52,911 bases of DNA from Eubacteriales bacterium (GCA_045632545.1 JAZQWY010000164.1:1-52911), one strand, 5' to 3'; counted from the stretch's first letter, positions 4,694-46,323 are shown. Made by a program: numbers and translations. The notes: generated by a model not told the origin, from the sequence alone.

Positions 4694-4990
4694 ATGTTCA
4701 AAAAAAGCAATCACCAATCATCACCCCAAGTCGTCGCGGAAAAGACGCGATATCGTTACATTCCTGTTCGGGAAAGTCTAGAGTCGGACGAGCTCGGCAC
4801 TTATATCTCATATGGTATATGTGTAAGACGTGAAAAAGAGGAAGAGATAGAATTTATCTCGGACGTTTCTACCGAATTTGAAAAAGTGAAGCGCCTAGCA
4901 CACATTTGTACTGAAAAGCAACTATCACCGGAACATTTATCCGACGTGATAGAGGACTTTCTTTCTGATGAAGAAAGTATCTTAGTTTAA
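4694..4990 (+). CDS. Hypothetical small acidic protein, a moron next to attL
   Basis: 98-aa ORF with RBS AAGGAGAA 8 nt upstream and its own terminator. No motif recognised. Confidence 0.6.
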   Translation: MFKKSNHQSSPQVVAEKTRYRYIPVRESLESDELGTYISYGICVRREKEEEIEFISDVSTEFEKVKRLAHICTEKQLSPEHLSDVIEDFLSDEESILV

Positions 4991-7202: not shown

Positions 7203-7256
7203 TGTAGCCCCATTCCCCCTACTAAAATCCTGTAAAGACAGAAAGGAGCAGTTAAA

Positions 7257-10892: not shown

Positions 10893-11039
10893 ATGAGACA
10901 AAAAAGAAAGCCCCCGAAGGAGCGAAGAGTACGAGAGAAATTTAGGGAGTTTCTGCAATCAGACATCCGGATGTTGCAACTTTCGATAATTTTTTTAACA
11001 ATAGCGTTAGATTTGCTTCTTATAAAGGTATATTGGTGA
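10893..11039 (+). CDS. Hypothetical small basic protein with a C-terminal TM helix
   Basis: ATG 10893 follows AAGGAAGAAAGGA. The track ORF 10800..11039 was trimmed. Weak call. Confidence 0.35.
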   Translation: MRQKRKPPKERRVREKFREFLQSDIRMLQLSIIFLTIALDLLLIKVYW

Positions 11040-18878: not shown

Positions 18879-19604
18879 ATGAAAAAAGAACCAAAAGGCT
18901 TTTGTATGTTCTTTGATTGGGTAGATGACTTGGATCAATGTAACGATGCAGACGCATGGAAAATTGTCAAGGCAATTAAAGAGTATTATGTAACTGGAGA
19001 AAATCCAGTAGATTTGGTAAAAAAACCGTTAAAAGCTACAATGGCTATGATTTATCACCAAATTCAACGAGGAGAAGATATAAGAAAAAAACGTTCAGAT
19101 GCGGGGCAACAAGGCGGAAATGCCAAAGCAAACAAAAATTTTGCTCAAGCAAATGAAAATTTTGCTAAAGCAAACTCTAGCAAACAAAAATTTTCTCAAG
19201 CAAATGAAAATTTGCTAAAGCAAAATGTGCCTACTATAACAGATACTAATACTATAACAGATACAGTATATCCTTCGGATATACAAAAAAAGAAAAATAT
19301 AAAAAAAGAAAAAGCGTCGCCAAAGGCTCCGCTACACGCGTACGGGGAATTTAATAACGTGATGTTAACCGATGAGGAGCTGGAAAAGCTCAAAGGAAAA
19401 TTTAACGATTGTGAGGAGCGTATTGAAACTTTAAGCTCGTATATAGCTTCTACGGGGAAAAAATATAAATCCCACTACGCCACGATACTTAATTGGGCGA
19501 AAAGAGATAAGGATAAAACGGAAGGAGTAACCTCAAATGAAAGAAACGAGCCAAATAATAAAGACGATTCCACTTTTGCGGGACTTGGCAACTGGATCTA
19601 CTGA
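18879..19604 (+). CDS. Replisome-organiser / DnaD-like replication protein (tentative)
   Basis: 241-aa ORF directly upstream of the DnaC-like loader. It contains iteron-like DNA repeats internally, and its C-terminal region YGEFNNVMLTDEELEKL..ATILNWAKRD is typical of phage replication helpers. Confidence 0.5.
   Translation: MKKEPKGFCMFFDWVDDLDQCNDADAWKIVKAIKEYYVTGENPVDLVKKPLKATMAMIYHQIQRGEDIRKKRSDAGQQGGNAKANKNFAQANENFAKANSSKQKFSQANENLLKQNVPTITDTNTITDTVYPSDIQKKKNIKKEKASPKAPLHAYGEFNNVMLTDEELEKLKGKFNDCEERIETLSSYIASTGKKYKSHYATILNWAKRDKDKTEGVTSNERNEPNNKDDSTFAGLGNWIY
19125..19264. repeat. Iteron-like repeats inside the replisome-organiser gene, a candidate phage origin
   Basis: Four GCAAA(C/T)(A/G)AAAATTT(T)GC palindromic units lie at 19128-19144, 19149-19165, 19180-19196 and 19200-19215, forming two tandem blocks of about 50 bp. 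ACTATAACAGATAC occurs twice, at 19233-19246 and 19251-19264. Confidence 0.5.
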
Positions 19605-22677: not shown

Positions 22678-22902
22678 ATGCCGTATGATGAAAAATCAAA
22701 AGAGCGTACTATGCGTTATATGAAAGAAAAAAGGGACAAGCTCACCCTAAATCTTCCTTCAGGCGATAAAGAACGCTATCGAACTCACGCCGAACAAATG
22801 CGAGGTAAAAGTTTGACAAGTCTGATTGTTGATTTGGTGGAGGAAGATATAAAAAAATGTGCTTACAGTAATGACAAAAGTGAAGGAGACACACAAAAAT
22901 GA
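22678..22902 (+). CDS. Ribbon-helix-helix (Arc/CopG-like) DNA-binding protein
   Basis: 74 aa. KLTLNLPSGDKERYRTHAEQMRGKSLTSLIVDLV is a beta-strand/helix/helix RHH pattern. An extended -10 promoter (TGTGTTATAAT) lies upstream. Confidence 0.6.
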   Translation: MPYDEKSKERTMRYMKEKRDKLTLNLPSGDKERYRTHAEQMRGKSLTSLIVDLVEEDIKKCAYSNDKSEGDTQK

Positions 22903-23249
22903 AAATGTCTAATGGAGTAAAATATTGCCTTGGAGTATGCGGGGCGCTTTGTGCGCTGTATCTTATCGGTGTGGCCGATTTGGATTATGGGTACTACACC
23001 TTCTTAAGGATAGCCTCTTTAATAGCGTTAGTTAGCCTGATACTCGTCTATTGGTCGGAGACAGTCAACGCTCTCAATCCTGTTACTATCATCGGCGGAG
23101 TGATATTGATATTGTTTAATCCGATATTCCCGATATATCTTGACAAAGAAATATGGGTAGTGCTTGATATCATAAGCGCTGTGTCTATGATTGGTTTGGG
23201 CGGATATATATTCGTCAAAAACAAAAAACAGAGTGGAAAAAACGAATAA
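22899..23249 (+). CDS. Polytopic small membrane protein (DUF6804-like, by recollection)
   Basis: ATGA overlap with the RHH gene. 116 aa with 3-4 hydrophobic helices and a YGYYTFLRI..LFNPIFPIYL pattern. Confidence 0.6.
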   Translation: MKMSNGVKYCLGVCGALCALYLIGVADLDYGYYTFLRIASLIALVSLILVYWSETVNALNPVTIIGGVILILFNPIFPIYLDKEIWVVLDIISAVSMIGLGGYIFVKNKKQSGKNE

Positions 23250-23319: not shown

Positions 23320-23355
23320 TAGGGGGACTACCTTTTTTGTTTTTGGGTGTATTAC
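23320..23355 (+). promoter_or_regulatory. Late-region motif copy 1 (TAGGGGGACTACC) with a -10-like TATTAC, upstream of terS
   Basis: The motif lies at 23320-23332. After 17 nt comes TATTAC (23350-23355). terS starts 28 nt further on. Confidence 0.5.
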
Positions 23356-27495: not shown

Positions 27496-27547
27496 CAGAT
27501 GGATTCGCCGACCCTAAACGGCAGATGGATTCGCCGACCCTAAACGG
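27496..27547. repeat. Perfect 26-bp tandem duplication between the prp and scaffold genes
   Basis: CAGATGGATTCGCCGACCCTAAACGG occurs at 27496-27521 and again at 27522-27547, followed by CAG. Confidence 0.9.
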
Positions 27548-30004: not shown

Positions 30005-30382
30005 ATGACAATAAACGAAGCTTTGAATGCGGCAGACGCGCTGAGAAACAACGCTGTGGGGCGAGAAATCAAGATAACTTTTCTTTCCGAGCTGGATGGA
30101 CGAATATGTTACGACATTATGCAGCCTTGCGGATATAAAGGAAATTTTATTGGCTATGATAGCAAGACACCGGGGGATACCGAGCTCCTCGTTCCGTATC
30201 CGTACGACGCGCTCTACGTTTCGTATCTGGAGCAGGAGATAGCTCGCGCCAGTAACGAGCTACCGAGATATAACAACGCGCGAGTTCTTTTCAACGAGAA
30301 ACTATCTGCGTTTCGTCAGTGGTATGTACGTACCCATAAGACGGAAACTCCGAATATCAAATTCCCGATAAGGGGGATATGA
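30005..30382 (+). CDS. Putative head-tail adaptor/connector protein
   Basis: 125 aa with RBS AGGAGG. The call rests on position after the capsid genes and loose resemblance to gp6-like connectors. Confidence 0.4.
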   Translation: MTINEALNAADALRNNAVGREIKITFLSELDGRICYDIMQPCGYKGNFIGYDSKTPGDTELLVPYPYDALYVSYLEQEIARASNELPRYNNARVLFNEKLSAFRQWYVRTHKTETPNIKFPIRGI

Positions 30383-32954: not shown

Positions 32955-33029
32955 TTTAACGAAAGTACTTGATTATTTTAGGAGAATATGGTACACTTAT
33001 ACCTAAAGTACAATTTGGAGGAAAGTCTT

Positions 33030-33311
33030 ATGAAAAAGTCTAAAAAAATTACAAAAATTATAATTGGAATAGGTTTAATGGTTCTTTCTTCGGTAGTTAT
33101 TACTACCCTTTCTATGAGTGGAATTCAACTGGGTGGTTTGCCGACAATTTTGGTTCATTCTCCTTGGATATGTTATTGGATTTACCTTAGACAATTAAAA
33201 AAGGAAGCTGCTGAAAAACAATCCCAAAAGGAAGAAAATTCACCCGAATCCGAGGAAGTTTCAGAACCCACCGACATTGAAAAAGATAACGTAGAAACAA
33301 CTGGTGAATAA
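33030..33311 (+). CDS. Small two-TM membrane protein with an acidic tail, a moron inside the structural module
   Basis: ATG 33030 follows GGAGGAAAG. A candidate promoter lies upstream: TTGATT (32969), 17 nt, TACACT (32992). It has its own strong terminator. Confidence 0.6.
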   Translation: MKKSKKITKIIIGIGLMVLSSVVITTLSMSGIQLGGLPTILVHSPWICYWIYLRQLKKEAAEKQSQKEENSPESEEVSEPTDIEKDNVETTGE

Positions 33312-33363: not shown

Positions 33364-33402
33364 TAGGGGGACTACCTTTTGGTAGTCTTTTTTTGATATA
33401 GT
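33364..33402 (+). promoter_or_regulatory. Late-region motif copy 2 with a hairpin and a -10-like TATAGT
   Basis: TAGGGGGACTACC lies at 33364-33376. The hairpin is GACTACC-TTTT-GGTAGTC followed by T7. TATAGT (33397-33402) lies 20 nt after the motif. Confidence 0.5.
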
Positions 33403-33436: not shown

Positions 33437-34579
33437 ATGAACGAAAAATACAAATTCAAACTAGGGCGGGATTACGAGAGCCGAAATCAGTCGGCAATAG
33501 ACGATTTGACAAACCAATATACGAATAGGCAGTTTTCCTATGATGCCGATACCGACGCGGCGTATCAGGACTACGCTAAGATGATGCGCGAGAGTGGATA
33601 TAAGGCAATGCAGGACACCGTGGCTCACGCTTCGGCTCTGACGGGGGGATACGGCAATTCCTATGCCGCTACGGCAGGGCAGCAGGTATACAATGATTAC
33701 GCAAAGCAGATAGGCGCGGCGCAGGCAGATTTTTACGACAGAGCCTTAGCTAACTTCAATTCCGAGGGTAACGACCTTTTGAGTAAGATAGGCGTTCTTG
33801 AAAATAGAGAAAACGCAGACAGAGCACTGTGGGAGGAGGATTATACCCGAGCTTGGAACGAGGCTGAACAGCGCGCTAATCATGGTGACGTAAGTGAGCT
33901 TGCAGGACTATTAGATATTGACACTGCAACCGTTCAAAAATCTCTCGGATATGGAGAGATAACTCCTGAAATTGAACAAGGTCTTATAGACGCTCTTAAT
34001 AACGAAAACGGCGATGAGTATTTACGTAGCTTGGTTGCTGCAGGGTATGACACGGAGAACTTAGTGGAAATGGCTAAGCGTTTACAGTATACAGGTAAGA
34101 TTAACAAAGATTTGAATTTTGAAGAAGATAAAGAAGCGAAAGGCGACTACAAATACAAAATAACATATACGGATAAACCCAAAATCGACCATGACGCATT
34201 TGTGGTAAAGGAGAGTGTCAATAAATCTGTTGAAGGAGAGAAATTCTCTAAGAAAGCAGGCGGTAAGTTCCATATTGCTCGTAAAGCTGCGCACAAGGAC
34301 ACAAACAATACTTTAGCAAATCCCAGTAGCTATGGTGGTGATGATGGTAAAGAGAATTGGTATCTTGAATTTGGCAAAGAGCTGGAAGACGATGATAGTG
34401 TATATACGCCGTTAATTAACAGTGGTAAATCAGGGGTTGTCTTATACAATGATGTATTATACTATATAGACGGCGACAAGGTACTTACTATTCAGGCTCG
34501 AGCCGAACACGTAGATGACTATAATAAATTATTAAAATTTATGAAAGATATCTATTGGCAACAAAACGAAACGAACTAA
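33437..34579 (+). CDS. Hypothetical virion protein
   Basis: 380-aa ORF with RBS AGGAGG. No motif recognised. Confidence 0.6.
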   Translation: MNEKYKFKLGRDYESRNQSAIDDLTNQYTNRQFSYDADTDAAYQDYAKMMRESGYKAMQDTVAHASALTGGYGNSYAATAGQQVYNDYAKQIGAAQADFYDRALANFNSEGNDLLSKIGVLENRENADRALWEEDYTRAWNEAEQRANHGDVSELAGLLDIDTATVQKSLGYGEITPEIEQGLIDALNNENGDEYLRSLVAAGYDTENLVEMAKRLQYTGKINKDLNFEEDKEAKGDYKYKITYTDKPKIDHDAFVVKESVNKSVEGEKFSKKAGGKFHIARKAAHKDTNNTLANPSSYGGDDGKENWYLEFGKELEDDDSVYTPLINSGKSGVVLYNDVLYYIDGDKVLTIQARAEHVDDYNKLLKFMKDIYWQQNETN

Positions 34580-34594: not shown

Positions 34595-37500
34595 ATGGGA
34601 AGATTAATGTTAACACCCGAAGAAGCGCAAGATAGGTTAGCCAAGGGGTATCAGCGTGCGATCTCTATAACCTTAAACGCCGAACGTAATCGTCTAACGG
34701 ATTTTGAAGCGCAGTACGGTACAGACTATGTTACAAAGTGGCACACCCCAGATGAATTTAATAAATATTACTCAGATTTAGAGGATGCTCGCGACTATCT
34801 GGAGTTATATAAGTCGTACTATAATACATACGGCACCGACGAGCAGAAGTCATCAGTGGCGGATTTAGACAACGTTATCGTGAGTTATAACGACGCTCTC
34901 GGAGCTAAGGACTCGATAATGTCGCACTATTCTCCGTACGCCACCGCCGACCAGTATCAGCGTGCTATGGATTTTCAGGCGGAGAAGATAGCGGAGCGTA
35001 ATATGTTGAGCACGTTGAATTTAGACGATGCGCAAAGCAATATAGATGCAAAAGAAATTGAAATATCTACGCTGAGAGCAGAATTAAGCGACTTACAGGC
35101 AGGTAAAATTAGGCTATCAAGAGCAGAAAAAGAAAAGAAAATAGGACAGTTGCAACTGGCTATTGCCCGAGCTAATGGTGAATTATCCGAATTAAAAAAT
35201 ACTCTTCATAAAGCATCGAAAATTCAAGAGGGGAATGAGTGGTCAAAATACAAAGACGCGCCGGATTTTGCCGAAATGTCCGTTCCCAAAGAAATGTTTG
35301 CTCACGAGTCGCAGACGTATAATGCAATATTTTACCCTGAAGCTCGTGAGATATACGCTAATATGGTCGGCAACTCCGGGACATCAGATGATTACATTTA
35401 CGATCTATTAGAGCCAACAGAAAAAGATATGGTAGCTTACTTAGATAAAGTATACGGTTGGGAAAAAGCTGAAAAATACTTAGATTTTATGACGGATGAG
35501 CTCATAAACAGACGGGCAAAGTCTTGGTATGAGTTCGGACAAGAACACAAGATTGCCGCCTATATAGCAGCTGTACCAATAAATCTTGTTAGTGGTATAG
35601 AGGCAGTAGGTAATATATTAACAGGGGCAAAACATCAAAATTTAACCTCCGCGGCAGCCCAGGCACTTCGTGGCGGTGCTTCGAGTACGATAGACAGCGA
35701 CCTTGGCAAGTTTTTATACAACACGGGTACGTCATTATTGGATAGCGCGACGGCGTTTGGTATTTCCGCGTTAACGGGTATGCCTGTCTTGGGGAGCGCT
35801 CTGCTCGGAGGCTCCGCCACAGCTAGTACTATGAACGACATGATATCTCGCGGCGCACGCGCGGATCAGGTTATATTTACAGGTATCGCGGCGGGTATCT
35901 TTGAGGCGTTGTTTGAAAGTTTTTCTTTAGGAGCCACTGGCGCAATCAAAAACTTGACGAGTATGCAGTTGAAGAATAGCGTCCTCAACACCTTAAAGGA
36001 TATGGGTATTTCCACGCTTGTAAACGCAAGCGAGGAAGCGGTTACAGAGGTCGCAAATATTCTATACGACACGATAGTTAACGGTGAATTTTCCGATGCC
36101 ACGATAATGGTAGAACAGCTTATGGCAAGAGGATATACCCAAGAAGAAGCCGTGTCCGCCGTAGTAAAGACAAAGGGTATGCAGATAGGCGAAGCGGCGG
36201 CATCGGGCGCGTTAATGGGTCCTGCCTTCGGCGGACTTGGAGTGGCAGCGGGAACGGTGGCGCGAGAGATTGGCTATCGTTCTGAGGGCGCGGATATAAA
36301 AAACTCCACTGACGACACGGCAAACTTAGAAACTCTATTGAAGTCTGCCGAAGCTTATTCCTCCGTGAGCAGAACTCTTAACAAAGCGGCAAGTAAGGTA
36401 ACGGAAAAGGGAGAGAAGGTCAGTAATAGGCAAGTTGGAAAGCTCAAAGCCGAGCTTATTCAAGCACAGCAAACGGCGTTCGCAAATCTGGCAAGCGAGA
36501 CCTTTCTCCCCGGCATAAAGACCGCGCTTGAAGAACAGGGACTAAGCGGAAAGACGCTTGATAAGACAGCTACCGCGATAGGTAAATATTTCGGCGGAGA
36601 GCGTAACAAACTTTCCCTGAACGAAGGAAAGCTCCTTGAGAGCGAAGCGGCAAAAAATGTAATTGACAGCTATAAGAAAATGATTGACGAAGCTGATGAG
36701 GAGACAAGACGAAAGCTAAACGATATCGCATATGACATAGAGCAAACGGCAGATTCGGGTATGCGAGCACGTGTAAACGCCCGCGCGAGTGAGATTTCCG
36801 AGCCCTCGAACGAGGCTGAACAGGTAGTATACGGCTATGGCTCGTCGGGTATGACGTGGGATGCAACGAAGTTCAAAATAGAAACAACAAGCTCTAATAG
36901 CGAGATGCTTAGGAATATCAGCCAACTTAGAGCATATGAGCTTTGGAAAATAGGAAGAGAGGAATACGTAAATAAGAACGAAACAGAGCGTGAAAACAAA
37001 AAAGCCGCCGCTATAAAAGCGGCGGAAGCGGAAGGCAAAAAGCATGTTCGCAGGGTAGGAAAGTACGACGACAGCAAGGCACGCAAAAGGCTCAAGCAGT
37101 TGAAACGCGAATCGGTACGCGGAGAGGAGCAGAAAAAGCTGTACGAACGTACTGAAGCAGCGCTCACGCTTGCTGAAATGATTGCTAAATTCGCGGGGAT
37201 AGACGTATACGTTATAGAGGGCGAGCCTGATGTGAACGGCAAGATAACGAGCGAAAACGGTTTATACGTGCTAAAAGAGGGCAAGAATACACAGGCTATC
37301 TATATAGATATAAACGCGGGTATAAATGATATGGACGATTTTATAAAAGCGGCTATTATCCCGCATTTATCTCACGAGGTAACGCACTCCTTTCGTGTCA
37401 ACGCTTCCACGCAGTATGAGAAGCTCAGCGTGTTTATCCAGGACTATCTGACCAAACAAGGCTACTCCGTTGAAGCGCTTGTTAAGCAACGCCAAGACGC

Positions 37501-40500
37501 ATACATGAGAAAGCACGGCAAGGAGCTTTCACCCGCAGATGCGCTTGAGGAAGTTATCGCTCGCGCGTGTGAGGAGCGTATGGGTAACAGTAAAGCGGTG
37601 AAGGAATTTGTTTCCGAGATGTACGCTAAGGACAAGACGCTTGCCGAGAAATTCGTAAACGAAGTTAAGAAGTTTATTGCTAAAATCAACGAGTGGTTCG
37701 ATATCTTCGCGAAGCAGGAATCTGTTACTGTAGAAGCTGAGAAAATGAAGGGAGCCGGAGACGAATTTCAACGGCTTTGGGACGAAGCATTCAAAGAAGC
37801 CGTTAAGGGCTATCAGGTGCTATATACTGGGAAGAGTAAGTCAACGTCAGAAAAGAAGACGGTTAAAAACTCTTTAAGGGAAGATTTTGCGGAAGAATAC
37901 GACAACTGGGATAAAAAGAATCCACGAAAAACATTTATCGTCGGAACAACATCAAAAGCGTTGCAGTCACTAGGGATTGAGGAAAAACCAATTACTTGGG
38001 ATTCGGCAAAAATAATAAAAATTAAGGGAAAACACCCCAAAATGACCGATGATGTGATAAAACAGGTCCCCAATATTTTGGAATATCCAATAGTAATAAT
38101 GGAGTCTAGGACAAAAGACGGACGACTTACGTTTTTTGGTGAAGTGTATGCAGATGGAAAACCTGTCCTTGCAGTGTTGGAGTTGTCTCCAACTAACAAA
38201 GATGGTATAGCTCTTGACGAGTTAAAAATAGCAAGCGCATACAGAAAAGATGGTGCCCAACGCTTGCTTTATAATTCAGAAATCTTATATCGTGATTCCG
38301 ACAAAAAAAGAGTTACCGAATGGGAAAAGCGTACTAGGCTCCAATTGCCGGTCGGCTATTCCTCCGATAACTCTACTAATAGTATAACCGAAAAAGCGCA
38401 AGTTGTCAACAGTAAAATTTCGGAAAATGAAAAAATTATGTACTCCGAGCGAGAGGACGTTCTAACCAGCGCCGAGATAGTGCGTAATATCTTTGAAAAA
38501 AATCCCAAGTATGAGGGATATGAGAAGAACGCTCAGCAGCTTGATAAGTATAAACTTGAAATGCAGAAAAAGGAAAGAAACGTCCAGCGTATACGAGATA
38601 TAGACAAAAAGATAAAGCAACTTAGACGTCTGCGCGCACAGTCGGGCAAGGGGACTCAAATGGATGATCTCCATCAGTCGAGACGGATTGCAGAAAGGCG
38701 TATCGCAGAGGCAGAGGCTAAAATGCTGGAATATGAAGCTCAGCAACTTCAAAGGGTAATCGAGGCAGAGCGAAAGAAGATGATAAAGGAGCTAACCGAG
38801 GAGCTTGAGGGTAAGCGTAGCGGTCAGGTGTCCGAAATCAGAATAAAACAGGCGAAGAAGGAGTTTATAGAAAGAATATCCAGAAAGACAAAAGACCTTC
38901 AGGAGAAGCTCTTGAAGAATACCAAGGACAAGCATATTCCCGAGGACTTCAAAAAACCTCTAGCGGAGTTTTTAGCGACGCTTGATTTTACTCCCCCTAA
39001 CACCCGTAATCGCAAGGGAGGGGAGACAAAGCGTGCGCAAAATGCCCGTGTAGCGTATGACAACTTGATGAACTGGATAAAAGCATACGCGAACACTCAC
39101 GTCGAGGATTTAGGCTATATTGATATTCAAGACGATTTGGCGGAAATGCTCAACGAACAGAAGGAAAAAATGTTGACTGCTATCGAGAGCTTAGGAAGTG
39201 AAAGCCATTTTAGGATATACAATATGGATTCCCAACAGCTTGAAACGCTGAATAGAGTTTTGAGGGAAGTTCAGATGGCTGTCAATAAGGCTAATTCGCT
39301 TAAGTCCGAAGGAAGCTTTAAGCACGTTGCGGAAATGGCGCAAGAATCTATGGAGCATAACGAGAGTTTCCGCAGAATGAAGAAAGGAGATAAACGCGGC
39401 CTGAGGGACTTCTTTGAGTGGGACAATACTTTGCCTGTTTATGCTTTTAAGCGACTTGGCGAAGCAGGACGACAGCTTTTCTCCGCGTTTCAGGACGGCT
39501 TTGACGAACTGATAATCAGGCTCGACGACGCAAGTAATTTTACCCTAAATCTTTATACCGACAAGGAGTACGAAAAATGGTGTAAAGAAATCCATACATT
39601 TGACCTGGAAACGTATAGGGAAGATGCAGACGGAAAGGTAATAACTAAGACAGAAAAGGTAACTCTGAACGTGCCTCAGATAATGTCGTTGTATTGTCTT
39701 GAAAAGAGAAAGCAAGGTCTCGGACATACGAGAGGCGGAGGTATATACGCGCCAACACCTGAGGGGGCAAAGGTACCTAACGGAAAGAACGGAGCTATGC
39801 TCACCGAGGATAGCGTTAAAGAGATACTTTCAAAACTTGATAAAAGACAGAAACACGTTGCCGACCAATTACAGCGTTATATGTCTACGACTTGCGCTAA
39901 ATGGGGAAATCGAGTATCTATGGCGCGCTGGGGATATCTTATGTTTACGGAGGAGTTTTATTTTCCCATAGACGTATATAACCCGAATAAGATAGACGAT
40001 AAAGCAACTTCAAGAGCAAACTCAATGTATAAATTACTCGATATGAGATTTATGAAGCCCACCGATCCAAACGCGAAGGGCAGGGTAGTATTGTATGACA
40101 TATTCGACGTATTCGCTTCTCACGCTGCGGATATGGCGCGTATGAGCTCGCTCTCCTTACCTGTGTTAGACTTCGTTAAATGGTACAGCTACAGAGAAAA
40201 GGTGAACGGTGATGAACGCACCTTAAAAAACTCTCTCGAAGATGCTTTTGGCAAGGGAATTATCAACTATCTAGATAACTTTATATCTGATATTAGCGGA
40301 GTTGTTGAAGTTCGGGGAAATGGGGTTGAATTTCTTGCAGATATTGTCAAAAACGCAAAGACGATGTCAGTAGGAGCGAATTTGAGGTCCACATCTCAGC
40401 AGCCTATGTCAGCTACACGCGCTATGTTGCTTATATCCCCGAAATATATGTCTAAAGCGATATTACAAAAGCCGAATAGAGAAAAGCTAAAGAAATGGTG

Positions 40501-41389
40501 CCCTATGGCGCTTTATAAGTCTATGGGATATCTTGAACCAGGTACCGGAAAAGGCTTTGATACTCTGATAAAACACGATGAAAGCGGTCTGCAAAAAGTT
40601 CGTGAAGGAACGATGAAGGGTATGGAGCTACTCGATGAATTAACTTGGGGCTACCTTTGGAACGCAATAGAACTTGAAATATCTGACAAACACCCAGAGC
40701 TTGTTAAAGATTCGGACGAATATAATATGCTTGTTGCCAAGCGTATGAGGGATATCATATATTACACTCAGGTTGTGGATTCTCCTATGAGCAAATCCGA
40801 TATTATGCGTAGTTCTAACAGCCTGACCAGGCAACTTACGGCATTTATGAGCGAGGCGACGGTTACATACAATATGTTATTGGACGTATATGAGGAAGGA
40901 ATGGATAGTGTTCGCCAAGGTGGAAAATTCTGGACTAGGGAACGCGCAGGAAAAGCGTGTCGTATTATCGCAATATACACACTAACTGCTTTGCAACTCG
41001 CCGCAGTGACATCTTTTATTGATGCTATGCGAGATGATGACTACGACGAGGAATATTTTGATAAATATGGGGAGGCGTTTCTAGCTAACATTATAAACGA
41101 GATGAATCCGCTAAGCAAGCTCCCTTGGTTTAGAGACTTCTTCAGCGCCATTGAGGGATACTATACACAAAGAACCGATACCGCTATATTTAACTACGTA
41201 GCTAGATTTATTAGAGATATTCAGAAGATATTTTCTAAAGGCATTACACCATATGAAGTTATATATGATGCGTTAAAGCTGGCTTCGGCAAGTACAGGTA
41301 TAGGAGCTAGTAACTTAATGAGAGACGTTGTGGCGATATGGAACAGCATAATGGCATCATTAGGATACAAGAGCCTGATCATCGAATAA
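34595..41389 (+). CDS. Giant 2264-aa multidomain virion protein, polyvalent-protein-like. It contains a Gly-rich hydrophobic segment, a zincin-like HExxH motif, a possible nuclease-like insert and coiled coils.
   Basis: A single uninterrupted ORF with RBS AGGAGAAAA. HEVTH lies at aa 927-931 (nt 37373-37387). Gly/Ala-rich hydrophobic stretches span aa 320-560. An AT-rich domain spans aa 1110-1225. Confidence 0.6.
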   Translation: MGRLMLTPEEAQDRLAKGYQRAISITLNAERNRLTDFEAQYGTDYVTKWHTPDEFNKYYSDLEDARDYLELYKSYYNTYGTDEQKSSVADLDNVIVSYNDALGAKDSIMSHYSPYATADQYQRAMDFQAEKIAERNMLSTLNLDDAQSNIDAKEIEISTLRAELSDLQAGKIRLSRAEKEKKIGQLQLAIARANGELSELKNTLHKASKIQEGNEWSKYKDAPDFAEMSVPKEMFAHESQTYNAIFYPEAREIYANMVGNSGTSDDYIYDLLEPTEKDMVAYLDKVYGWEKAEKYLDFMTDELINRRAKSWYEFGQEHKIAAYIAAVPINLVSGIEAVGNILTGAKHQNLTSAAAQALRGGASSTIDSDLGKFLYNTGTSLLDSATAFGISALTGMPVLGSALLGGSATASTMNDMISRGARADQVIFTGIAAGIFEALFESFSLGATGAIKNLTSMQLKNSVLNTLKDMGISTLVNASEEAVTEVANILYDTIVNGEFSDATIMVEQLMARGYTQEEAVSAVVKTKGMQIGEAAASGALMGPAFGGLGVAAGTVAREIGYRSEGADIKNSTDDTANLETLLKSAEAYSSVSRTLNKAASKVTEKGEKVSNRQVGKLKAELIQAQQTAFANLASETFLPGIKTALEEQGLSGKTLDKTATAIGKYFGGERNKLSLNEGKLLESEAAKNVIDSYKKMIDEADEETRRKLNDIAYDIEQTADSGMRARVNARASEISEPSNEAEQVVYGYGSSGMTWDATKFKIETTSSNSEMLRNISQLRAYELWKIGREEYVNKNETERENKKAAAIKAAEAEGKKHVRRVGKYDDSKARKRLKQLKRESVRGEEQKKLYERTEAALTLAEMIAKFAGIDVYVIEGEPDVNGKITSENGLYVLKEGKNTQAIYIDINAGINDMDDFIKAAIIPHLSHEVTHSFRVNASTQYEKLSVFIQDYLTKQGYSVEALVKQRQDAYMRKHGKELSPADALEEVIARACEERMGNSKAVKEFVSEMYAKDKTLAEKFVNEVKKFIAKINEWFDIFAKQESVTVEAEKMKGAGDEFQRLWDEAFKEAVKGYQVLYTGKSKSTSEKKTVKNSLREDFAEEYDNWDKKNPRKTFIVGTTSKALQSLGIEEKPITWDSAKIIKIKGKHPKMTDDVIKQVPNILEYPIVIMESRTKDGRLTFFGEVYADGKPVLAVLELSPTNKDGIALDELKIASAYRKDGAQRLLYNSEILYRDSDKKRVTEWEKRTRLQLPVGYSSDNSTNSITEKAQVVNSKISENEKIMYSEREDVLTSAEIVRNIFEKNPKYEGYEKNAQQLDKYKLEMQKKERNVQRIRDIDKKIKQLRRLRAQSGKGTQMDDLHQSRRIAERRIAEAEAKMLEYEAQQLQRVIEAERKKMIKELTEELEGKRSGQVSEIRIKQAKKEFIERISRKTKDLQEKLLKNTKDKHIPEDFKKPLAEFLATLDFTPPNTRNRKGGETKRAQNARVAYDNLMNWIKAYANTHVEDLGYIDIQDDLAEMLNEQKEKMLTAIESLGSESHFRIYNMDSQQLETLNRVLREVQMAVNKANSLKSEGSFKHVAEMAQESMEHNESFRRMKKGDKRGLRDFFEWDNTLPVYAFKRLGEAGRQLFSAFQDGFDELIIRLDDASNFTLNLYTDKEYEKWCKEIHTFDLETYREDADGKVITKTEKVTLNVPQIMSLYCLEKRKQGLGHTRGGGIYAPTPEGAKVPNGKNGAMLTEDSVKEILSKLDKRQKHVADQLQRYMSTTCAKWGNRVSMARWGYLMFTEEFYFPIDVYNPNKIDDKATSRANSMYKLLDMRFMKPTDPNAKGRVVLYDIFDVFASHAADMARMSSLSLPVLDFVKWYSYREKVNGDERTLKNSLEDAFGKGIINYLDNFISDISGVVEVRGNGVEFLADIVKNAKTMSVGANLRSTSQQPMSATRAMLLISPKYMSKAILQKPNREKLKKWCPMALYKSMGYLEPGTGKGFDTLIKHDESGLQKVREGTMKGMELLDELTWGYLWNAIELEISDKHPELVKDSDEYNMLVAKRMRDIIYYTQVVDSPMSKSDIMRSSNSLTRQLTAFMSEATVTYNMLLDVYEEGMDSVRQGGKFWTRERAGKACRIIAIYTLTALQLAAVTSFIDAMRDDDYDEEYFDKYGEAFLANIINEMNPLSKLPWFRDFFSAIEGYYTQRTDTAIFNYVARFIRDIQKIFSKGITPYEVIYDALKLASASTGIGASNLMRDVVAIWNSIMASLGYKSLIIE

Positions 41390-41409
41390 AAAATAAAAAA
41401 TTTTTTGCA

Positions 41410-41448
41410 TAGGGGGACTACCTTTTGGTAGTCTCCTTGTGTTATTCT
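41410..41448 (+). promoter_or_regulatory. Late-region motif copy 3 with a hairpin and a -10-like TATTCT
   Basis: TAGGGGGACTACC lies at 41410-41422, with the partner arm GGTAGTCTCC at 41427-41436. TATTCT (41443-41448) lies 20 nt after the motif. Confidence 0.5.
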
Positions 41449-41478
41449 GTATATGAAATACGGTTGAAGGAGGAATTA

Positions 41479-42321
41479 ATGAAAATAATTCACGAGGTCA
41501 CACTCGACGTTTCCCGTCAAGGCGTTCAGTGTGCCATACCTATCACACAGCATGACGCATATGTTCATAGGCTTATTATACATCTGCGAGACGGGCCCGA
41601 GCTTCTTAAGCTGAGTGCGCACGACAAGGCTGAGCTATACGTTGACACGGATACGTACGAAGACGTACAGATATACCTGGAGAATAGCGTTTATCCTGAC
41701 TGCCTTGTATACGACATATCTCCATTTGTATCACAGGAGAGTGGAGAACATAGGGCGATACTTCAAATACACAACGAGGTAAACGGCGAGACTTTTATGT
41801 ACTCTCCCGAGTTTGCACTTCATATCAAAAAGGATATGACGAGTTCGTCAAAAATTTTATCGTCTCCGCAGTATTCGGCAGTGCTAAAAGCTCTGTTGGC
41901 AGCAGAGCAGTACGCAAAAGAAAGTGAAGAATTTGCGAGACTTTTCAAGGAAGGAATAGCATACTACGCAGAAACAGCCGAAACAGCGCGACACTATACT
42001 AAAGGCGGCGAGATTGACCGAAAATTCCGTAGCCTTGAGGAAAATAGCGCGGCTTCAATTTCTTCAACACGACGTGGTAAGTTGTTAGATATTTTTCTCG
42101 AAAATAGTGCCGGTGAGATTGTAGATGGTGAAACCGTAGATTTGTTTGTAGAAAATCCGGTTAATCATATTTCGTATTATAAGAGTGGTGATAGCTATGT
42201 GCTGAGGCTGTCTTTCCAAAATGGTAATGCGCAGGATATTGATATCTCGGCTGTTATGAGAGAAATTAATAATCGCTTCCAAGAAATAGATAGCAGGCTT
42301 TCTGCACTTGAACAAAACTAA
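41479..42321 (+). CDS. BppU-like (baseplate upper protein N-domain) tail/fibre-associated protein
   Basis: ATG 41479 follows GAAGGAGG. The N-terminus IHEVTLDVSRQGVQCAIPITQHDAYVHRLIIHLRDG resembles the BppU N-domain pattern. Confidence 0.5.
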   Translation: MKIIHEVTLDVSRQGVQCAIPITQHDAYVHRLIIHLRDGPELLKLSAHDKAELYVDTDTYEDVQIYLENSVYPDCLVYDISPFVSQESGEHRAILQIHNEVNGETFMYSPEFALHIKKDMTSSSKILSSPQYSAVLKALLAAEQYAKESEEFARLFKEGIAYYAETAETARHYTKGGEIDRKFRSLEENSAASISSTRRGKLLDIFLENSAGEIVDGETVDLFVENPVNHISYYKSGDSYVLRLSFQNGNAQDIDISAVMREINNRFQEIDSRLSALEQN

Positions 42322-42344: not shown

Positions 42345-43403
42345 ATGCTACTTGAAAAAGCAAAAATTTACGGCGTTGATGGGGTCGGAGCGAAAAGTCC
42401 GACACTTACAAGAACAGATGATGCCGTAGGACTGTCTTATACTGTTGGAGCAAGCGAGATTACTAGTGACTTTAACAACTGCTACCCGTGGAGCGATATA
42501 CAGGAAGTTACCGACCCAGCAGGGAATGTCTTTATTAGAATACCTAAATTTTATGGCAAAGTCACAAAAAACAGCGACGGCACGTACAAGTATCAGATTT
42601 CGGGTGTTCGTTACGACGGATTCTCCACGCTGTTTATCGACGGCAAGGGCAACGAAATAGATTACGTGCTTGTCGGTAAATATGAAGGCTCAGGCTCGTC
42701 CTCTCGCGTGTATTCAAAAAGCGGACAGCCCGTGCTTGGTGACATTAAATTTGCGGATTTTCGTTATGGCTGTAGCGCCAACGGAAAGGGCTATCAACAG
42801 TACGATTTCCTTATAGACGCAATTATCAAACATTTGTTTCTGATTGAGTTTGCCACCACAAATTCACAGAGCATTATGAGAGGCTATAATGCGCCGAATA
42901 ATAAACGCCCACCCATCTCAACGGGTAACACTGATTCCGTAGCAACTCCAAGTGGCTCTAATGGCAGTAATACGGACGGCTATCATGCTTGTAAATATCG
43001 CGGCATCGAAAACCCGTGGGGCAACACTTGGAAGTGGTGCGACGGCGTTTATTTTGACGGCAATAAGGTTTATGTCTGCACCGACCCAACTATGTATTCC
43101 AATAGAGGTCCGAATGCGCCGTACTTTTATATGGGTGACAGATGTATGTCTAATGGATACTCTTCTGTCATTACTCCCTTTGAAAAGATGCCTTTACTCG
43201 GCTATACCACAGAAGCAAGTGGCGATGATGCAACATATTACAGCGACATATACTATACTTCCGCTACGGGCAACACAATGCTTGTTGGTGGGCGTTGGAA
43301 CATAGACGCAGAGGCGGGTCTATGGGCTTGTGGTGGAAACACTATGGATAATATCGACCTAGGACCAGATTTAGCTGGGCGCCTCTGTTATAAACCAATT
43401 TAA
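42345..43403 (+). CDS. Putative tail fibre/receptor-binding protein with a C-type-lectin/FGE-like C-terminus
   Basis: 352 aa with RBS AGGAGGA. The C-terminal VGGRWNIDAEAGLWACGG..LAGRLCY resembles Mtd/FGE-type ligand-binding ends. Confidence 0.5.
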   Translation: MLLEKAKIYGVDGVGAKSPTLTRTDDAVGLSYTVGASEITSDFNNCYPWSDIQEVTDPAGNVFIRIPKFYGKVTKNSDGTYKYQISGVRYDGFSTLFIDGKGNEIDYVLVGKYEGSGSSSRVYSKSGQPVLGDIKFADFRYGCSANGKGYQQYDFLIDAIIKHLFLIEFATTNSQSIMRGYNAPNNKRPPISTGNTDSVATPSGSNGSNTDGYHACKYRGIENPWGNTWKWCDGVYFDGNKVYVCTDPTMYSNRGPNAPYFYMGDRCMSNGYSSVITPFEKMPLLGYTTEASGDDATYYSDIYYTSATGNTMLVGGRWNIDAEAGLWACGGNTMDNIDLGPDLAGRLCYKPI

Positions 43404-43421
43404 CTTAAACGGTGGGTTTGT

Positions 43422-43910
43422 GTGAGTATGAAATATATAGTTATTAACGACATAGCCATTCTAGCCACCAGAAATATTGAGGAGATAGACGATATTAACG
43501 GCTTAAAGGTGACATTTGAAGGTGTTACCGATATAGAAGATAATGCCACATTGAATCTTATTTTCATCGGTGACACGGATATCCGTGACACCGATATCCG
43601 TGTTACAGATGAACGGTTAACGAAAACAATACACGACAATTATACAACTATTATGCCTGAGGAGTTGCAGGAAGGTATATATCACGTAACGGTCTGCTGG
43701 ACTAGCCATGAAAACAATGAAAACGTAACACACGAAGCCTGCGGATGCCCTTTTAAGGTGTATAAGCAGAATGACTGGAAAAGGGCAATAATTCCAGCCC
43801 CGCTGTCAAGCGCGACAAATATAGAGCATATGTGGAAGGGAATAATAAATACGCTTGAGAGAGTATTGCCCGCAATAGACAGCTATCAAAACGGAAACGA
43901 TGTAATTTAG
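43422..43910 (+). CDS. Hypothetical protein
   Basis: 162-aa ORF. The start is GTG 43422 or ATG 43428. Contains a 15-bp duplication with the palindrome ACGGATATCCGT at about 43572-43600. Confidence 0.55.
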   Translation: MSMKYIVINDIAILATRNIEEIDDINGLKVTFEGVTDIEDNATLNLIFIGDTDIRDTDIRVTDERLTKTIHDNYTTIMPEELQEGIYHVTVCWTSHENNENVTHEACGCPFKVYKQNDWKRAIIPAPLSSATNIEHMWKGIINTLERVLPAIDSYQNGNDVI

Positions 43911-43923
43911 TAAAGGAGAAAAA

Positions 43924-44679
43924 ATGAAAAAGTTTATTTTCGTGTTAATGGCGTTTGCCCTTATATTCGTCGGTACTGTTGGTGTTTGCGCAGAAGAAGC
44001 AAGTGTTGATGCGGATTCAAAAATTACAGAACAGATACTGACCGAAACACAAACGACATCAGAAGAAACGGCGCCGGTGGAAACAGCACCGGAAGAAACA
44101 AAGTCAACCGACGAATACGCAAAGACTTTTGTCGATTACATATTCTCGGGCGGTGCGGGCTCTGAGGAGCTTATGGATAAAATAATCGCTATGGGTGAAC
44201 AGTATCAGGCATCGAAGGAAGCTGGATATACATTTGAGGAAAGAATAGCTCAGATGATAACTACTGAGAATATTACTACTCTTGCCGCAGCGGGATTCTT
44301 GGTTATATGTGGAATCGCTTTCTTTGTTATAGAACAGAAACAAAAAAAGGATAGACACAAGATATATTCATACGTTTCGGAATTAGAGCAAAAATATAGC
44401 GCCGAGATTGAGTCAAATACTAAGTTGAAAGATGATATTGAAAAACAGCGTGAGAGTATTGAAGAAATGAAAGCTATTCTTACAGCTCTACGCGATAATT
44501 CGATAAACTCTAAGGACGATATGAATAAGGTGGCCCATGCAAACGTAGCCGTTGCTAAGATGGTTAAAGATGTGTTCCTTAATTCAAAAACTCTTGATGC
44601 AAGTGCTAAGGCATTGATGGTACATAACTATATGGAGGTTGTTGAGTCTGAGACGGATAAAAAGGAGAATGAAAAGTGA
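43924..44679 (+). CDS. Membrane protein 1 of the terminal cassette: signal peptide, acidic ectodomain, one TM helix and a cytoplasmic coiled coil
   Basis: 251 aa with RBS AAAGGAGAAAA. Signal peptide is MKKFIFVLMAFALIFVGTVGVCA. TM helix is AAAGFLVICGIAFFVI. Confidence 0.7.
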   Translation: MKKFIFVLMAFALIFVGTVGVCAEEASVDADSKITEQILTETQTTSEETAPVETAPEETKSTDEYAKTFVDYIFSGGAGSEELMDKIIAMGEQYQASKEAGYTFEERIAQMITTENITTLAAAGFLVICGIAFFVIEQKQKKDRHKIYSYVSELEQKYSAEIESNTKLKDDIEKQRESIEEMKAILTALRDNSINSKDDMNKVAHANVAVAKMVKDVFLNSKTLDASAKALMVHNYMEVVESETDKKENEK

Positions 44680-45077
44680 GCGATAGGATGAAATATGAGT
44701 TGTGGGATTTTTTGGCGAGACTGTGCGCGGTTATCCCACCACTCGGAGCTACGCTGTTTTTCTTCCCGGAATGGATAGAGCAATCCCCGCGAGCGACATT
44801 CTCTGGAATGTTGCTTGTCGCAACGTTGATATGTATGGTTCCGTTTTGGAAAAAGATTCTTCAAATTTCCAAATCTTTTTCCTCTACGTCGATGCCAGTG
44901 TTTTGGATTATACTTTTTGCTGTGTTCTTTGTTGTAAGAGATATCGTAGACAGAATAATGTATATATCCTTATTTGGACTTTTGGGTTCAGGAATAAGTA
45001 TGGCAGTTTGTATTATGCGAAATAAATATGCTTACGCTCTTTCTAAAGAAACTGATAAAGAAGGGAAGAACAAGTAA
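44676..45077 (+). CDS. Membrane protein 2 of the terminal cassette: four hydrophobic helices, a holin-like candidate
   Basis: GTG 44676 lies 8 nt after AAGGAG and overlaps the upstream stop. 133 aa. Confidence 0.65.
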   Translation: MSDRMKYELWDFLARLCAVIPPLGATLFFFPEWIEQSPRATFSGMLLVATLICMVPFWKKILQISKSFSSTSMPVFWIILFAVFFVVRDIVDRIMYISLFGLLGSGISMAVCIMRNKYAYALSKETDKEGKNK

Positions 45078-46018
45078 TGTATAACGAAATCGACGACGAA
45101 ACAAAAGCCGAAAAAAGAAGACAAACACGAAAAAGCCTTGAAAGGGAGATAGCAGGCGCTGAGCCTGATAGGATACAACTTAATGACCTAATGCTCGGGG
45201 CGCTAGTTCTGTTGGCTGCTATTATATCCTTTACCGATTTTTCGTTTTCTGTAGGAGATATCCGAAATTTTACGGCACTGACACTCTTTCTTTATATCAT
45301 TACAATGTTCGTTTATAGAAACAGCTACGCCAAAGGAATATCGAGAGGAAAAAAAGATACCGAGTACCAGGAAGCTCTTTCAAAATATCGTGATAAGAGA
45401 GAATCAATATACGAGCGAAATCTTGCTAAACGTGTACCTGAGTTTTGTACTTACTATAAGAAGAAAGAACTCAGAGAATATAGAGAGAGTCTTTTGGTAG
45501 ATATCGAGATGGAGTATGACGAGTATAAAGAAAAGTATCTTAGAATGCCGTATAAAGAAATCAGAAAACAAGCTCTTTCGTATGAGGCAAAGAAAATTAT
45601 TGCTAAATGTAATGCTGCCAAAGCAATAAAACTTTATCCTGGAATGATCCTTAATGAGAACGGCGAATTTGACCGACATAAGCTTCTAGGAAAAAGTGGT
45701 CGAGAACGTGAGCGTTTAGACAAAAAGAAACAAGCCGTAACCAGAGCAATTTACGTCGTGTTCGGGGCTATGGTGGCTTTCGATGTCATCTTTAATTTTT
45801 CTTTGTTGACAATAGCACAGTGGGTTGTAAGAATGTTGCCTGTTGTTATTGCTATAATAAGTGGCGACGATGGCGGGTACTGTAATGTTACGGTTACAGA
45901 GACATTTTTCAAAAACGGACAGATAAACGTAATAAATTTGTTTAACGAATACATAAGCGTAGAGGAAAAAGTGATAAATACCCCAGAATATATTGTGGAA
46001 AAAAATAAAGAAAATTAG
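45077..46018 (+). CDS. Membrane protein 3 of the terminal cassette: two TM hairpins flanking a charged loop of about 140 aa
   Basis: TAATG overlap. 313 aa. It is the last gene before attR. Confidence 0.7.
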   Translation: MYNEIDDETKAEKRRQTRKSLEREIAGAEPDRIQLNDLMLGALVLLAAIISFTDFSFSVGDIRNFTALTLFLYIITMFVYRNSYAKGISRGKKDTEYQEALSKYRDKRESIYERNLAKRVPEFCTYYKKKELREYRESLLVDIEMEYDEYKEKYLRMPYKEIRKQALSYEAKKIIAKCNAAKAIKLYPGMILNENGEFDRHKLLGKSGRERERLDKKKQAVTRAIYVVFGAMVAFDVIFNFSLLTIAQWVVRMLPVVIAIISGDDGGYCNVTVTETFFKNGQINVINLFNEYISVEEKVINTPEYIVEKNKEN

Positions 46019-46027
46019 CAAAAACTA

Positions 46028-46056
46028 TTGACATTTCTTGGAAATTGTGATAAAAT
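46028..46056 (+). promoter_or_regulatory. Outward-facing consensus-like promoter at the right prophage end
   Basis: TTGACA (46028-46033), a 17-nt spacer, then TAAAAT (46051-46056) with an extended TGA. It points across attR, antisense to tRNA-Thr. Confidence 0.55.
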
Positions 46057-46246: not shown

Positions 46247-46292
46247 TTGGAGCTGGTGATGTGACTCGAACACACGACCTGCTGATTACGAA
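46247..46292. repeat. attR, the right copy of the 46-bp att core
   Basis: Identical to 4489-4534. It forms the 3' part of the intact tRNA-Thr. Confidence 0.9.
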
Positions 46293-46323
46293 TCAGCTGC
46301 ACTACCGACTGTGCTACACCAGC
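46248..46323 (-). tRNA. tRNA-Thr (anticodon CGU), 76 nt with an encoded CCA
   Basis: Hand-folded cloverleaf: acceptor GCTGGTG/CACCAGC, D stem GCAC/GTGC, anticodon stem GCTGA/TCAGC with loop TTCGTAA, T stem GTGTG/CACAT with loop TTCGAGT, then discriminator T and CCA. Confidence 0.9.

Follow-up and report, generated by a model that had tools for sequence, protein, structure and literature searches.

A conserved late block encoding three coupled predicted membrane proteins in a Clostridia prophage without a recognisable endolysin

Lysis cassettes are among the most used parts of phages, with lysins serving as antimicrobials and holins as kill switches, and to our knowledge all characterised tailed phages carry a muralytic enzyme. 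The holins of T7, phi29 and most Gram-positive siphophages are located after the tail-fibre or tail genes, and multi-component holin systems are found in phages of Gram-positive bacteria, including XhlA-XhlB-XlyA of PBSX, gp24.1 and gp26 of SPP1, and gp4 and gp5 of mycobacteriophage Ms6. In P22-like phages, the gtrABC genes for O-antigen conversion, flanked by the tail-spike or fibre gene on one side and attP/int on the other, encode three membrane proteins; GtrA has approximately 120 amino acids (aa) and four transmembrane (TM) helices, GtrB has approximately 310 aa, and the third member is variable. Membrane exclusion proteins are also encoded beside tail genes, e.g. Cor of phi80 and N15, gp15 of HK97, Llp of T5 and SieA of P22, and these are single small genes of patchy distribution, expressed in lysogens or early in infection. 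In the present study, we analysed three genes, herein P1, P2 and P3, at the end of a prophage in a contig of 52,911 nucleotides (nt) from an Eubacteriales bacterium (GCA_045632545.1, JAZQWY010000164.1:1-52911), and this whole stretch is hereafter called the window. A preliminary description of this DNA, made from the sequence alone, had placed the three genes in the lysis slot of a prophage lacking a recognisable endolysin.

P1, P2 and P3 are the final genes of the prophage, and attR comes straight after them (Table 1). The description of three open reading frames (ORFs) fused by overlapping start and stop codons was borne out, with the coordinates, both junctions and the short gap ahead of the first ORF all as claimed. 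Hydropathy and composition also agree with the topologies that had been assigned, and all three products are predicted integral membrane proteins without a known family. The ATG of P1 is preceded by AAAGGAGA, with a good Shine-Dalgarno sequence, and the start codon of P2 is preceded by AAAAGGAGAA. By comparison with relatives, P1-P3 are genuine genes and not chance ORFs, because P3 has many homologues, P1 and P2 genes flank P3 in related loci, and the signal site of P1 is conserved.

More than 276 homologues of P3 were found at 60-75% identity, and a profile search returned 367 clusters (50% identity), almost all of them comprising full-length proteins of 280-345 aa; the 20 clusters whose names were looked up are called only 'hypothetical protein'. 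Through P3, 33 loci were retrieved (cited by L numbers where they have to be told apart), and the count of lineages with and without a lysin given below covers 23 lineages. A metagenome scan for further contexts gave only seven short loci. The hosts in the locus records are Clostridia, Lachnospiraceae, Oscillospiraceae and Eubacteriales metagenome-assembled genomes (MAGs), some of them from yak or roe-deer gut. In every locus reaching far enough upstream, P3 is preceded by homologues of P1 and P2 and by a gene for a soluble protein. The soluble protein, encoded by the first gene, has 129-182 aa; the P1-like protein has 213-270 aa, with MKK, a hydrophobic stretch, AXA↓E, one TM helix and a coiled coil; and the P2-like protein has 123-157 aa and four TM helices. 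Start and stop codons that overlap or nearly abut are found again across the relatives, and the architecture is kept where P3 is 19-38% identical to the window copy (L019-L025). Because the same three genes precede P3 in relatives, even at low P3 identity, the unit is, on comparative grounds, one of four genes, a small coiled-coil protein gene plus P1, P2 and P3, and the trio is its membrane part. Judged by its distribution, the block belongs to the core late genes of an uncultured phage lineage, and its retention over such divergence suggests that the function is important and not accessory.

The first gene of the block in the window has ATG 43428 as its probable start. In 14 loci, a homologue is found immediately before P1; the mean column identity of these sequences is 32%, and a single Gly column is invariant. 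The profile of this 162-aa protein gave only weak matches (E 0.04-1), mostly to coiled-coil peptides and proteins (gp26, the tail needle of P22, and a fibre protein were among the matches), and the ORF had no family match in Pfam, PHROGs, NCBIfam or PADLOC.

The TM helices and topologies of the trio were called from hydropathy. P1 has an N-terminal hydrophobic signal at residues 4-22, ending VCA↓EE, and a TM helix at 117-135, and on this basis it is a predicted type I membrane protein with a cleavable Sec signal peptide. Its ectodomain (24-116) contains 22 D+E against 6 K+R and is rich in Thr, Glu and Pro, and the 116-aa charged tail is a coiled coil, predicted to be cytoplasmic, that ends in the conserved motif VKDVFLNSKTLDA. 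The AXA↓E signal-peptidase site is kept in 11 of 12 aligned P1 sequences, and the A23 column is invariant. The ectodomain differs between groups and is the most variable part of the whole block; none of 32 P1 homologues (220-273 aa) carries a fused domain. P1 was also considered as a spanin or lipoprotein, and no lipobox was found at the cleavage site (the signal ends VGVCA↓EE); the Cys beside this site is absent in most relatives, whereas nearly all have the signal-peptidase I site AXA↓E. Labels of FtsL, FtsB and Wzz on a few P1 relatives in JGI records are artefacts of a TM helix combined with a coiled coil.

In P2, three TM helices were scored and a fourth hydrophobic stretch was sub-threshold; both termini are predicted to be cytoplasmic by the positive-inside rule, and the C-terminal tail RNKYAYALSKETDKEGKNK is charged. 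An alignment of three groups showed P22, A25, P31, W33, G44, W77 and G101 to be invariant and an FPxW outer loop to be conserved. With 133 aa, 3-4 TM helices and this tail, P2 fits the usual shape of holins (about 60-150 aa, at least one TM helix, a charged C-terminal tail) and appears to be the most holin-like of the trio in size and shape, whereas P1 (251 aa) and P3 (313 aa) are outside this size range. Pfam searches of 12 P2 homologues gave only sub-threshold matches, to the Hol118 holin family or Phage_holin_5_1 (E 0.046) in 2 of the 12, and to MFS_1.

P3 is the best conserved member of the block and is predicted to contain two TM hairpins (approximately 35-84 and 221-261) around a basic, helical cytoplasmic domain, a 136-aa loop with 36 K+R and 24 D+E. 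Among 30 close homologues the mean column identity is 69%, with the motifs YRNRY, ELREYRESLLCDIEM and GDDGGYCN. Near-invariance over 44 diverse relatives is confined to C124, G263 and G267, a pattern that does not point to an enzyme. The AF2 model of P3 is all-helical, with a pLDDT of 73.8 overall and above 90 over residues 100-180. Foldseek found no match for it in the PDB (best E 1.4, probability at most 0.06, TM-score at most 0.2), and a bestrophin-like or alpha-pore-forming (XaxB) fold was rejected since the scores were not significant. In BFVD, three phage proteins of 297-307 aa (A0A2Z4GU85, A0A8S5M2A9 and A0A8S5M9I1) resemble P3 in predicted fold (E 8e-9 to 2e-5, TM-score 0.52-0.64); they are unnamed, and differ from it in sequence, with identities of just 16-24%.

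No characterised holin or exclusion family was matched by the trio in the family searches or by P3 in the fold search. For P1-P3, Pfam, PHROGs and NCBIfam gave no family above noise, and PADLOC gave a single noise-level match, LmuA at E 0.013, on the coiled coil of P1. The 44 diverse P3 relatives had only scattered sub-threshold matches in PHROGs, and the profiles of P3, P2 and the 162-aa upstream protein gave only membrane-composition or coiled-coil noise against PDB sequences. A tblastn search of 50,697 GenBank phage records with P1, P3 and two distant P3 relatives gave no match up to E 10, an IMG/VR scan gave no match to the trio, and the literature on DUF6514, endolysin-independent lysis and MuF phages contained nothing bearing on it. 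Thus, the trio family is new to every library searched, and its role is likely to fall within the known late membrane functions of phages.

Compared with the holin systems of PBSX, SPP1 and Ms6, the trio is similar in that several co-expressed membrane proteins are predicted at the end of a late operon, past the fibre genes, in that some relatives have an amidase nearby, and in that P2 combines a small size with several TM helices and a charged C-terminal tail. The differences are a lack of sequence similarity and, for P3, of fold similarity, the far larger P1 and P3, the strong conservation of P3 and its 136-aa cytoplasmic domain, the absence of an adjacent lysin in the window, and the presence in relatives of an extra small putative holin. 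The likeness to gtrABC lies in the place between the fibre gene and attP/int and in the sizes of P2 and P3, which are close to those of GtrA and GtrB. However, the trio is tied to the late operon and not separately expressed, and it is core rather than accessory; a gtrABC-type cassette was rejected, since neither Glycos_transf_2 (GT2) nor GtrA was matched and the P3 model is all-helical. With Cor, gp15, Llp and SieA the trio shares a membrane location and linkage to receptor-binding genes, although it is a conserved three-protein unit for which no promoter of its own was found.

The context of the block indicates how it may be expressed. The 13-nt motif TAGGGGGACTACC has three exact copies in the window, all on the plus strand, where 0.05 would be expected by chance. 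These copies (23320-23332, 33364-33376 and 41410-41422) are just upstream of terS, of the ORF at 33437-34579 and of the fibre gene, respectively, and in two of them a hairpin is formed with a GGTAGTC further downstream. The motif was not found in any of the 33 related loci, and it probably marks three late units, as a late promoter, a regulator site or an antitermination element specific to this phage. From 42345 to 46018, the intergenic gaps are 13-19 nt, or the genes overlap. Because a scan from the copy at 41410 to the P3 stop at 46018 gave no terminator-like or strong promoter-like site, the fibre, receptor-binding and 162-aa genes and P1-P3 look like one late transcription unit. Upstream of P1, promoter-like matches are weak (9/12), and their number in the region is at background level. 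The late co-transcription and translational coupling that had been predicted for the trio agree with the short gaps and overlaps and with the lack of a terminator-like site.

The genes preceding the block, wherever they can be identified, encode tail-fibre or large tail-type proteins. The fibre gene of the window probably starts at an internal ATG giving MKIIHEVTLD, as in relatives; it is 47-57% identical to the fibre N-termini of L011 and L014, and its counterpart in L007 has BppU_N. In L019, two large fibre-position genes and the block are in the middle of the structural module, where they lie between homologues of the 98-aa and 125-aa genes of the window and ahead of the homologues of the 805-aa, 380-aa and giant proteins. 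Since L019 has moved both together, the block is tied to the preceding fibre genes and not to the att-proximal end, and the suggestion of a lysogenic-conversion module at that end is weakened. The block is conserved in related prophages, and its position is not fixed: it follows the fibre genes, into the structural module in the case of L019.

The region behind P3 separates the relatives into two groups. In seven lineages (L005/6, L007/8, L009/10, L013, L028, L029 and L032), P3 is followed after 60-70 nt by the gene for a 70-76-aa protein with two TM helices, which is a putative holin, and then, wherever the contig runs on, by that for an Amidase_3+SPOR protein of 219-220 aa; where these loci extend further, a serine recombinase gene is located beyond, on the other strand. 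The pair is absent in 16 lineages (the window, L001-4, L011, L014/15, L016-L025, L030 and L033), where P3 is followed by an att site at a tRNA gene (tRNA-Ser in L016 and L017, tRNA-Thr in L018), host genes, a tyrosine integrase gene, or a few small genes without a lysin domain. Neither the holin nor the amidase of the relatives was found in the window by tblastn. Because the pair co-occurs behind the trio in relatives, the trio is no substitute for a holin-endolysin pair. The view that it occupies the lysis slot was therefore not upheld: the trio precedes this slot in seven lineages, and in the window the slot is empty, with attR directly behind P3. The adjacency to a lysin that is typical of holins is also lacking, since the window has no recognised lysin, and in relatives the amidase adjoins a putative holin of its own (70-76 aa), while P2 is separated from the pair by P3 and a hairpin. 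This conserved hairpin of 13 base pairs (bp), between P3 and the putative holin (L005 10974-11005; L009 approximately 10954-10985), has no T tract and shows one compensatory change, G-C to A-T, between L005 and L009; it is possibly a regulatory or processing structure before the lysis cassette.

In the circular form of the window phage, the order is P3, attP, the DUF6514 gene and the integrase gene. The DUF6514 gene is the sole gene between attP and the integrase gene, where the relatives with a serine recombinase hold the holin and amidase, and its homologues adjoin P3 on the opposite strand in L011, L014, L016 and L017. A promoter-like site just past P3 is directed across attR, and a terminator-like hairpin (4997-5020) is located at the end of the DUF6514 gene; in the excised circle, this promoter could read via attP into DUF6514, which might then be expressed only after excision. 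In L014, an identical att core is found in inverted orientation between P3 and the integrase gene, and the DUF6514 gene is inverted relative to P3. On a 122-kb contig (JAFTXX010000014.1) of a Clostridia MAG, L014 and L015 match each other at 100% identity along 12 kb with a spacing of 40,186 bp and, going by this identity and spacing, are a concatemer or circle of a relative of approximately 40.2 kb with the tRNA-Thr att core of the window. They have no lysin between P3 and the integrase gene either. The lysin-less layout probably works, given that a close relative sharing it is assembled as a concatemer or circle.

The variable region behind P3 in relatives often contains genes resembling those for spore coat or exosporium. 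A CotJC-like Mn catalase gene is present in L001 (10984-11574), a weak BclA_C match was obtained in L020, and a Gly/Cys-rich protein family recurs in L020, L023 and L024 (L020 11807-12250 and 11250-11723; L023 11924-12493; L024 11254-11718, for these spore-like genes). They may be sporulation-related cargo of phages of spore formers.

The absence of a recognisable endolysin was confirmed to the extent of the searches made here. Every prophage ORF of at least 50 aa was searched against Pfam, directly and in concatenated form, and subsets of the ORFs against PHROGs, NCBIfam and PADLOC, and no peptidoglycan-hydrolase or holin family was found in the former, with the latter in agreement. Muralytic domains (amidase_2/3/5, GH25, GH19, GH73, SLT, CHAP/NlpC-P60, M23, VanY and others) were not detected in the prophage ORFs, nor were cell-wall-binding modules (LysM, SH3, PG_binding, CW_7, SPOR and choline-binding) in the window ORFs. 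Fragments of the 805-aa and 2264-aa proteins gave no lysin family in Pfam up to E 5, and phmmer against the PDB with the three large unknown proteins gave nothing. Hence, the hydrolase domain elsewhere in the prophage that would have displaced the trio was not found with Pfam, and tblastn and the PDB search were equally empty.

Three hiding places for a lysin had been named, namely the 162-aa protein, the 380-aa protein and the giant protein. For the 162-aa protein this is unlikely, since across its 14 homologues no polar or catalytic residue is conserved, only one Gly, and its profile resembles trimeric coiled coils. The AF2 model of the 380-aa protein (pLDDT 87.1) has a long helical hairpin and a beta domain and matched no PDB fold, including any lysin fold, which makes a hidden lysin look unlikely here as well. 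Approximately 10 of 120 homologues of its TGGYGNSYA domain are fused to LysM, PG_binding_1, PG_binding_3 or CW_7 (e.g. P0357, P0378, P0384, P0390 and P0407; L026 10001-11497), and the window copy is without such a module. In relatives the gene is always located just ahead of that for the giant MuF or polyvalent protein, with synteny in L019 and L026, and its product is probably a cell-wall-associated virion protein used in entry. The TGGYGNSYA domain points to a second unannotated cell-wall-directed phage function. Relatives of the giant protein have 2400-4800 aa, with ART-PolyVal, LPD3, DNA methylase or SNF2 helicase domains, and it belongs to the polyvalent or MuF-toxin type of cargo protein described in PMC5576092.

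Two other small proteins of the window are holin-like candidates. The DUF6804 protein has no PHROG match. Its gene has the position directly upstream of terS, where lambda and P22 carry their lysis genes. The 107-aa protein has no match in Pfam, PHROGs, NCBIfam or PADLOC and no homologue in L001-L018, and a G+C content at third codon positions (GC3) of just 0.28 suggests that its gene was recently acquired.

Herein, we tentatively propose that the trio is a late membrane complex controlling or executing permeabilisation, which is the likeliest of the readings of the trio although we give it well under an even chance. It is based on the predicted late coupled expression and the core conservation, on a position between the fibre genes and the lysis cassette, on the resemblance of P2 to holins in shape, and on the absence of other lysis genes. 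Translational coupling would yield P1, P2 and P3 in fixed proportion, and the three proteins would be inserted in the membrane of the infected cell, P1 through Sec with loss of its signal peptide, leaving nearly all the soluble mass of the trio on the cytoplasmic side. At the end of infection, the complex would serve as a holin of several components or as a regulator of holins, and it would work ahead of the canonical holin and the Amidase_3-SPOR endolysin where relatives have them. In the window prophage, the wall would be broken by an unrecognised muralytic protein or by host autolysins released on de-energisation of the membrane. The prophage is otherwise intact, with a full set of packaging and head genes and an ORF of 2264 aa, yet has no known holin or endolysin family, which supports a lysis role. 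We infer complex formation, late expression and any part in lysis from the arrangement of the genes and the predicted form of their products.

Several points weigh against this proposal. The trio has no sequence similarity to a holin, antiholin or lysis regulator, nor has P3 any such similarity in fold, and P3 is much larger and much better conserved than is usual for holins. Relatives bearing the trio own a separate small putative holin, with a conserved hairpin between the two modules, and in L019 the block sits with the fibre genes among the structural genes, which fits a fibre or virion role equally well. Moreover, either of the two holin-like candidates could be the real holin. A stronger form, in which lysis is free of an endolysin because the trio collapses the membrane potential, with action of host autolysins, or blocks a step of wall synthesis, the holin-amidase pair being a later add-on, is highly improbable in our estimation. 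If the trio is a lysis device, it would be the first of a new class, either of multi-component holins or of lysis controllers, and it could reveal a way of Gram-positive lysis without a dedicated endolysin. In either case, an apparently complete prophage and at least 15 related lineages lack a recognisable lysin or holin and all keep the trio, which is a core function of abundant uncultured phages of gut Clostridia that is invisible to current annotation.

The missing lysin may have an explanation of its own. That a muralytic enzyme is present with an unrecognised fold, e.g. in the 380-aa protein, the 805-aa protein (30379-32796) or the 2264-aa MuF protein, is compatible with any reading of the trio, and we take it as a serious possibility falling only somewhat short of an even chance. 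Since no recognisable wall-degrading domain is present even in the virion proteins, although a Gram-positive wall must be crossed, the libraries are evidently blind to part of this lineage, and the fusions found in relatives of the 380-aa N-terminal domain involve modules typical of lysins. However, the modelled hairpin and beta domain of this protein are not enzyme-like, the place of its gene among structural genes, beside that of an ejected giant protein, points to entry and not exit, and neither the 162-aa protein nor the fragments of the large proteins gave a sign of a lysin. Alternatively, the prophage may be defective, having lost the holin-amidase pair when a tyrosine integrase and tRNA att replaced the serine recombinase, and in this case the trio would be unrelated to the lack of a lysin. 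The serine-recombinase relatives do hold the pair between P3 and the recombinase gene, an interval that in the window contains only attP and the DUF6514 gene. Yet the 16 lineages, with P3 identities of 19-74% and intact large ORFs, are all lysin-less; repeated independent loss is unlikely in so diverse a set of otherwise intact genomes, and the 40.2-kb concatemer or circle suggests active replication. We consider this explanation very unlikely, although this particular copy may have decayed.

The link with the fibre genes might instead reflect exclusion or receptor masking, in which the trio blocks adsorption or DNA entry of like phages, or the sticking of progeny to debris, and is linked to receptor-binding genes through co-evolution. 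The block always comes directly after tail-type genes and accompanies them when they move, the P1 ectodomain, the sole sizeable extracellular part, is the most variable region, and Cor, gp15 and Llp set a precedent for membrane exclusion proteins beside tail genes. We nevertheless regard exclusion as unlikely. No convincing promoter for expression in the lysogen was found ahead of the block, which is core and deeply conserved where exclusion genes are usually patchy, P3 is 58-75% identical between phages with unrelated fibre genes, and the usual position between repressor and integrase is already occupied by small membrane ORFs. A role in morphogenesis or DNA delivery, with the block assembling or maturing the tail-fibre apparatus at the membrane or supplying genome-delivery proteins, would account for the transcription unit shared with the fibre genes and their joint move in L019, for the weak coiled-coil matches of the 162-aa protein, one of which is a tail needle and another a fibre protein, and for the core-like conservation. 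The conserved cleavable Sec signal of P1 and the strongly hydrophobic, polytopic P2 and P3 are difficult to reconcile with it, because proteins inserted co-translationally cannot enter cytoplasmic procapsids, and we know of no precedent in tailed phages for a morphogenesis or delivery block of membrane proteins; we judge this role to be quite unlikely.

The prophage spans 41.8 kb, and its edges are formed by a 46-nt direct repeat without mismatches. The genes outside it, URO-D-type and RACo on the left and those for DXS, SpoIIGA and a sigma factor on the right, belong to the host, which is a spore-forming member of the Clostridia. Every large ORF in the window is intact. Within the prophage, the genes recognised with Pfam are those for a tyrosine integrase, HicAB, an ImmA-like protein and an S24-type repressor, for recombination, SSB, a C5 methylase, RusA and a DnaC-like loader, and for the large terminase subunit, a P22-type portal, Prp, a capsid protein and the 2264-aa MuF_C protein, to which PHROGs added the 805-aa 'internal virion protein' and two tail proteins. 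Matches of the portal reach at most 42% identity on unannotated faecal contigs and 23.5% in Bacillus phage PK1. The lineage is one of uncultured, temperate phages of gut Clostridia that, with a P22-type portal, are probably short-tailed.

Table 1. Features of the prophage region, with positions counted from the first nucleotide of the window
Feature	Position	Strand	Remarks
attL	4489-4534		core repeat, partner of attR
DUF6514 gene	4694..4990	+	98 aa, acidic, soluble; Pfam E 4e-16
HicA/HicB toxin-antitoxin pair	7008-7676		lysogeny module; integrase gene on one side, S24-type repressor gene on the other
Small membrane ORFs	8680-9033, 9046-9642		repressor-integrase interval
Holin-like candidate	22899..23249	+	116 aa, four TM helices, DUF6804 (Pfam E 2.5e-15); directly upstream of terS
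Holin-like candidate	32988..33311	+	107 aa, 1-2 hydrophobic segments, highly charged C-terminal tail
380-aa protein	33437..34579	+	N-terminal 'TGGYGNSYA' domain of about 110 aa, unannotated family; C-terminal beta domain
Giant protein	34595-41389		2264 aa; MuF_C at residues 1140-1238, the only recognisable domain
Late element, third copy	41399..41445	+	TAGGGGGACTACC with GGTAGTC hairpin
Tail-fibre protein	41425..42321	+	phrog_10972 tail fibre, E 2e-4
Tail or receptor-binding protein	42345..43403	+	phrog_5302 tail protein, E 3e-45; no Pfam match
162-aa protein, first block gene	43422..43910	+	soluble; beta-rich N-terminal part, C-terminal coiled coil
P1	43924-44679	+	251 aa; ATG 13 nt past the preceding stop
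P2	44676-45077	+	133 aa; GTG start overlaps the P1 stop as GTGA
P3	45077-46018	+	313 aa; ATG overlaps the P2 stop as TAATG
Promoter-like site	46028..46056	+	TTGACA, 17 nt, TG-n-TAAAAT; 11/12 plus extended -10
attR core	46247-46292		3' part of tRNA-Thr(cgt) 46248-46323, minus strand

Several repeats were also observed in the prophage. The 18-nt repeat AAATTTTGCTMAAGCAAA occurs four times at 19136-19224 with a spacing of 20-30 nt, within the ORF 18879-19604 (DUF6291) and upstream of the DnaC-like gene, and more short repeats follow at 19232-19264; the AAATTTTGCTMAAGCAAA region is probably the replication origin of the phage. A perfect 26-nt tandem duplication, with two copies of CAGATGGATTCGCCGACCCTAAACGG at 27496-27547, extends across the start codon of the scaffold gene (27525). 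In the 805-aa gene, four tandem copies of the 15-nt unit ATACAGAAGCTGTAG at 31127-31186 encode a repeated pentapeptide.

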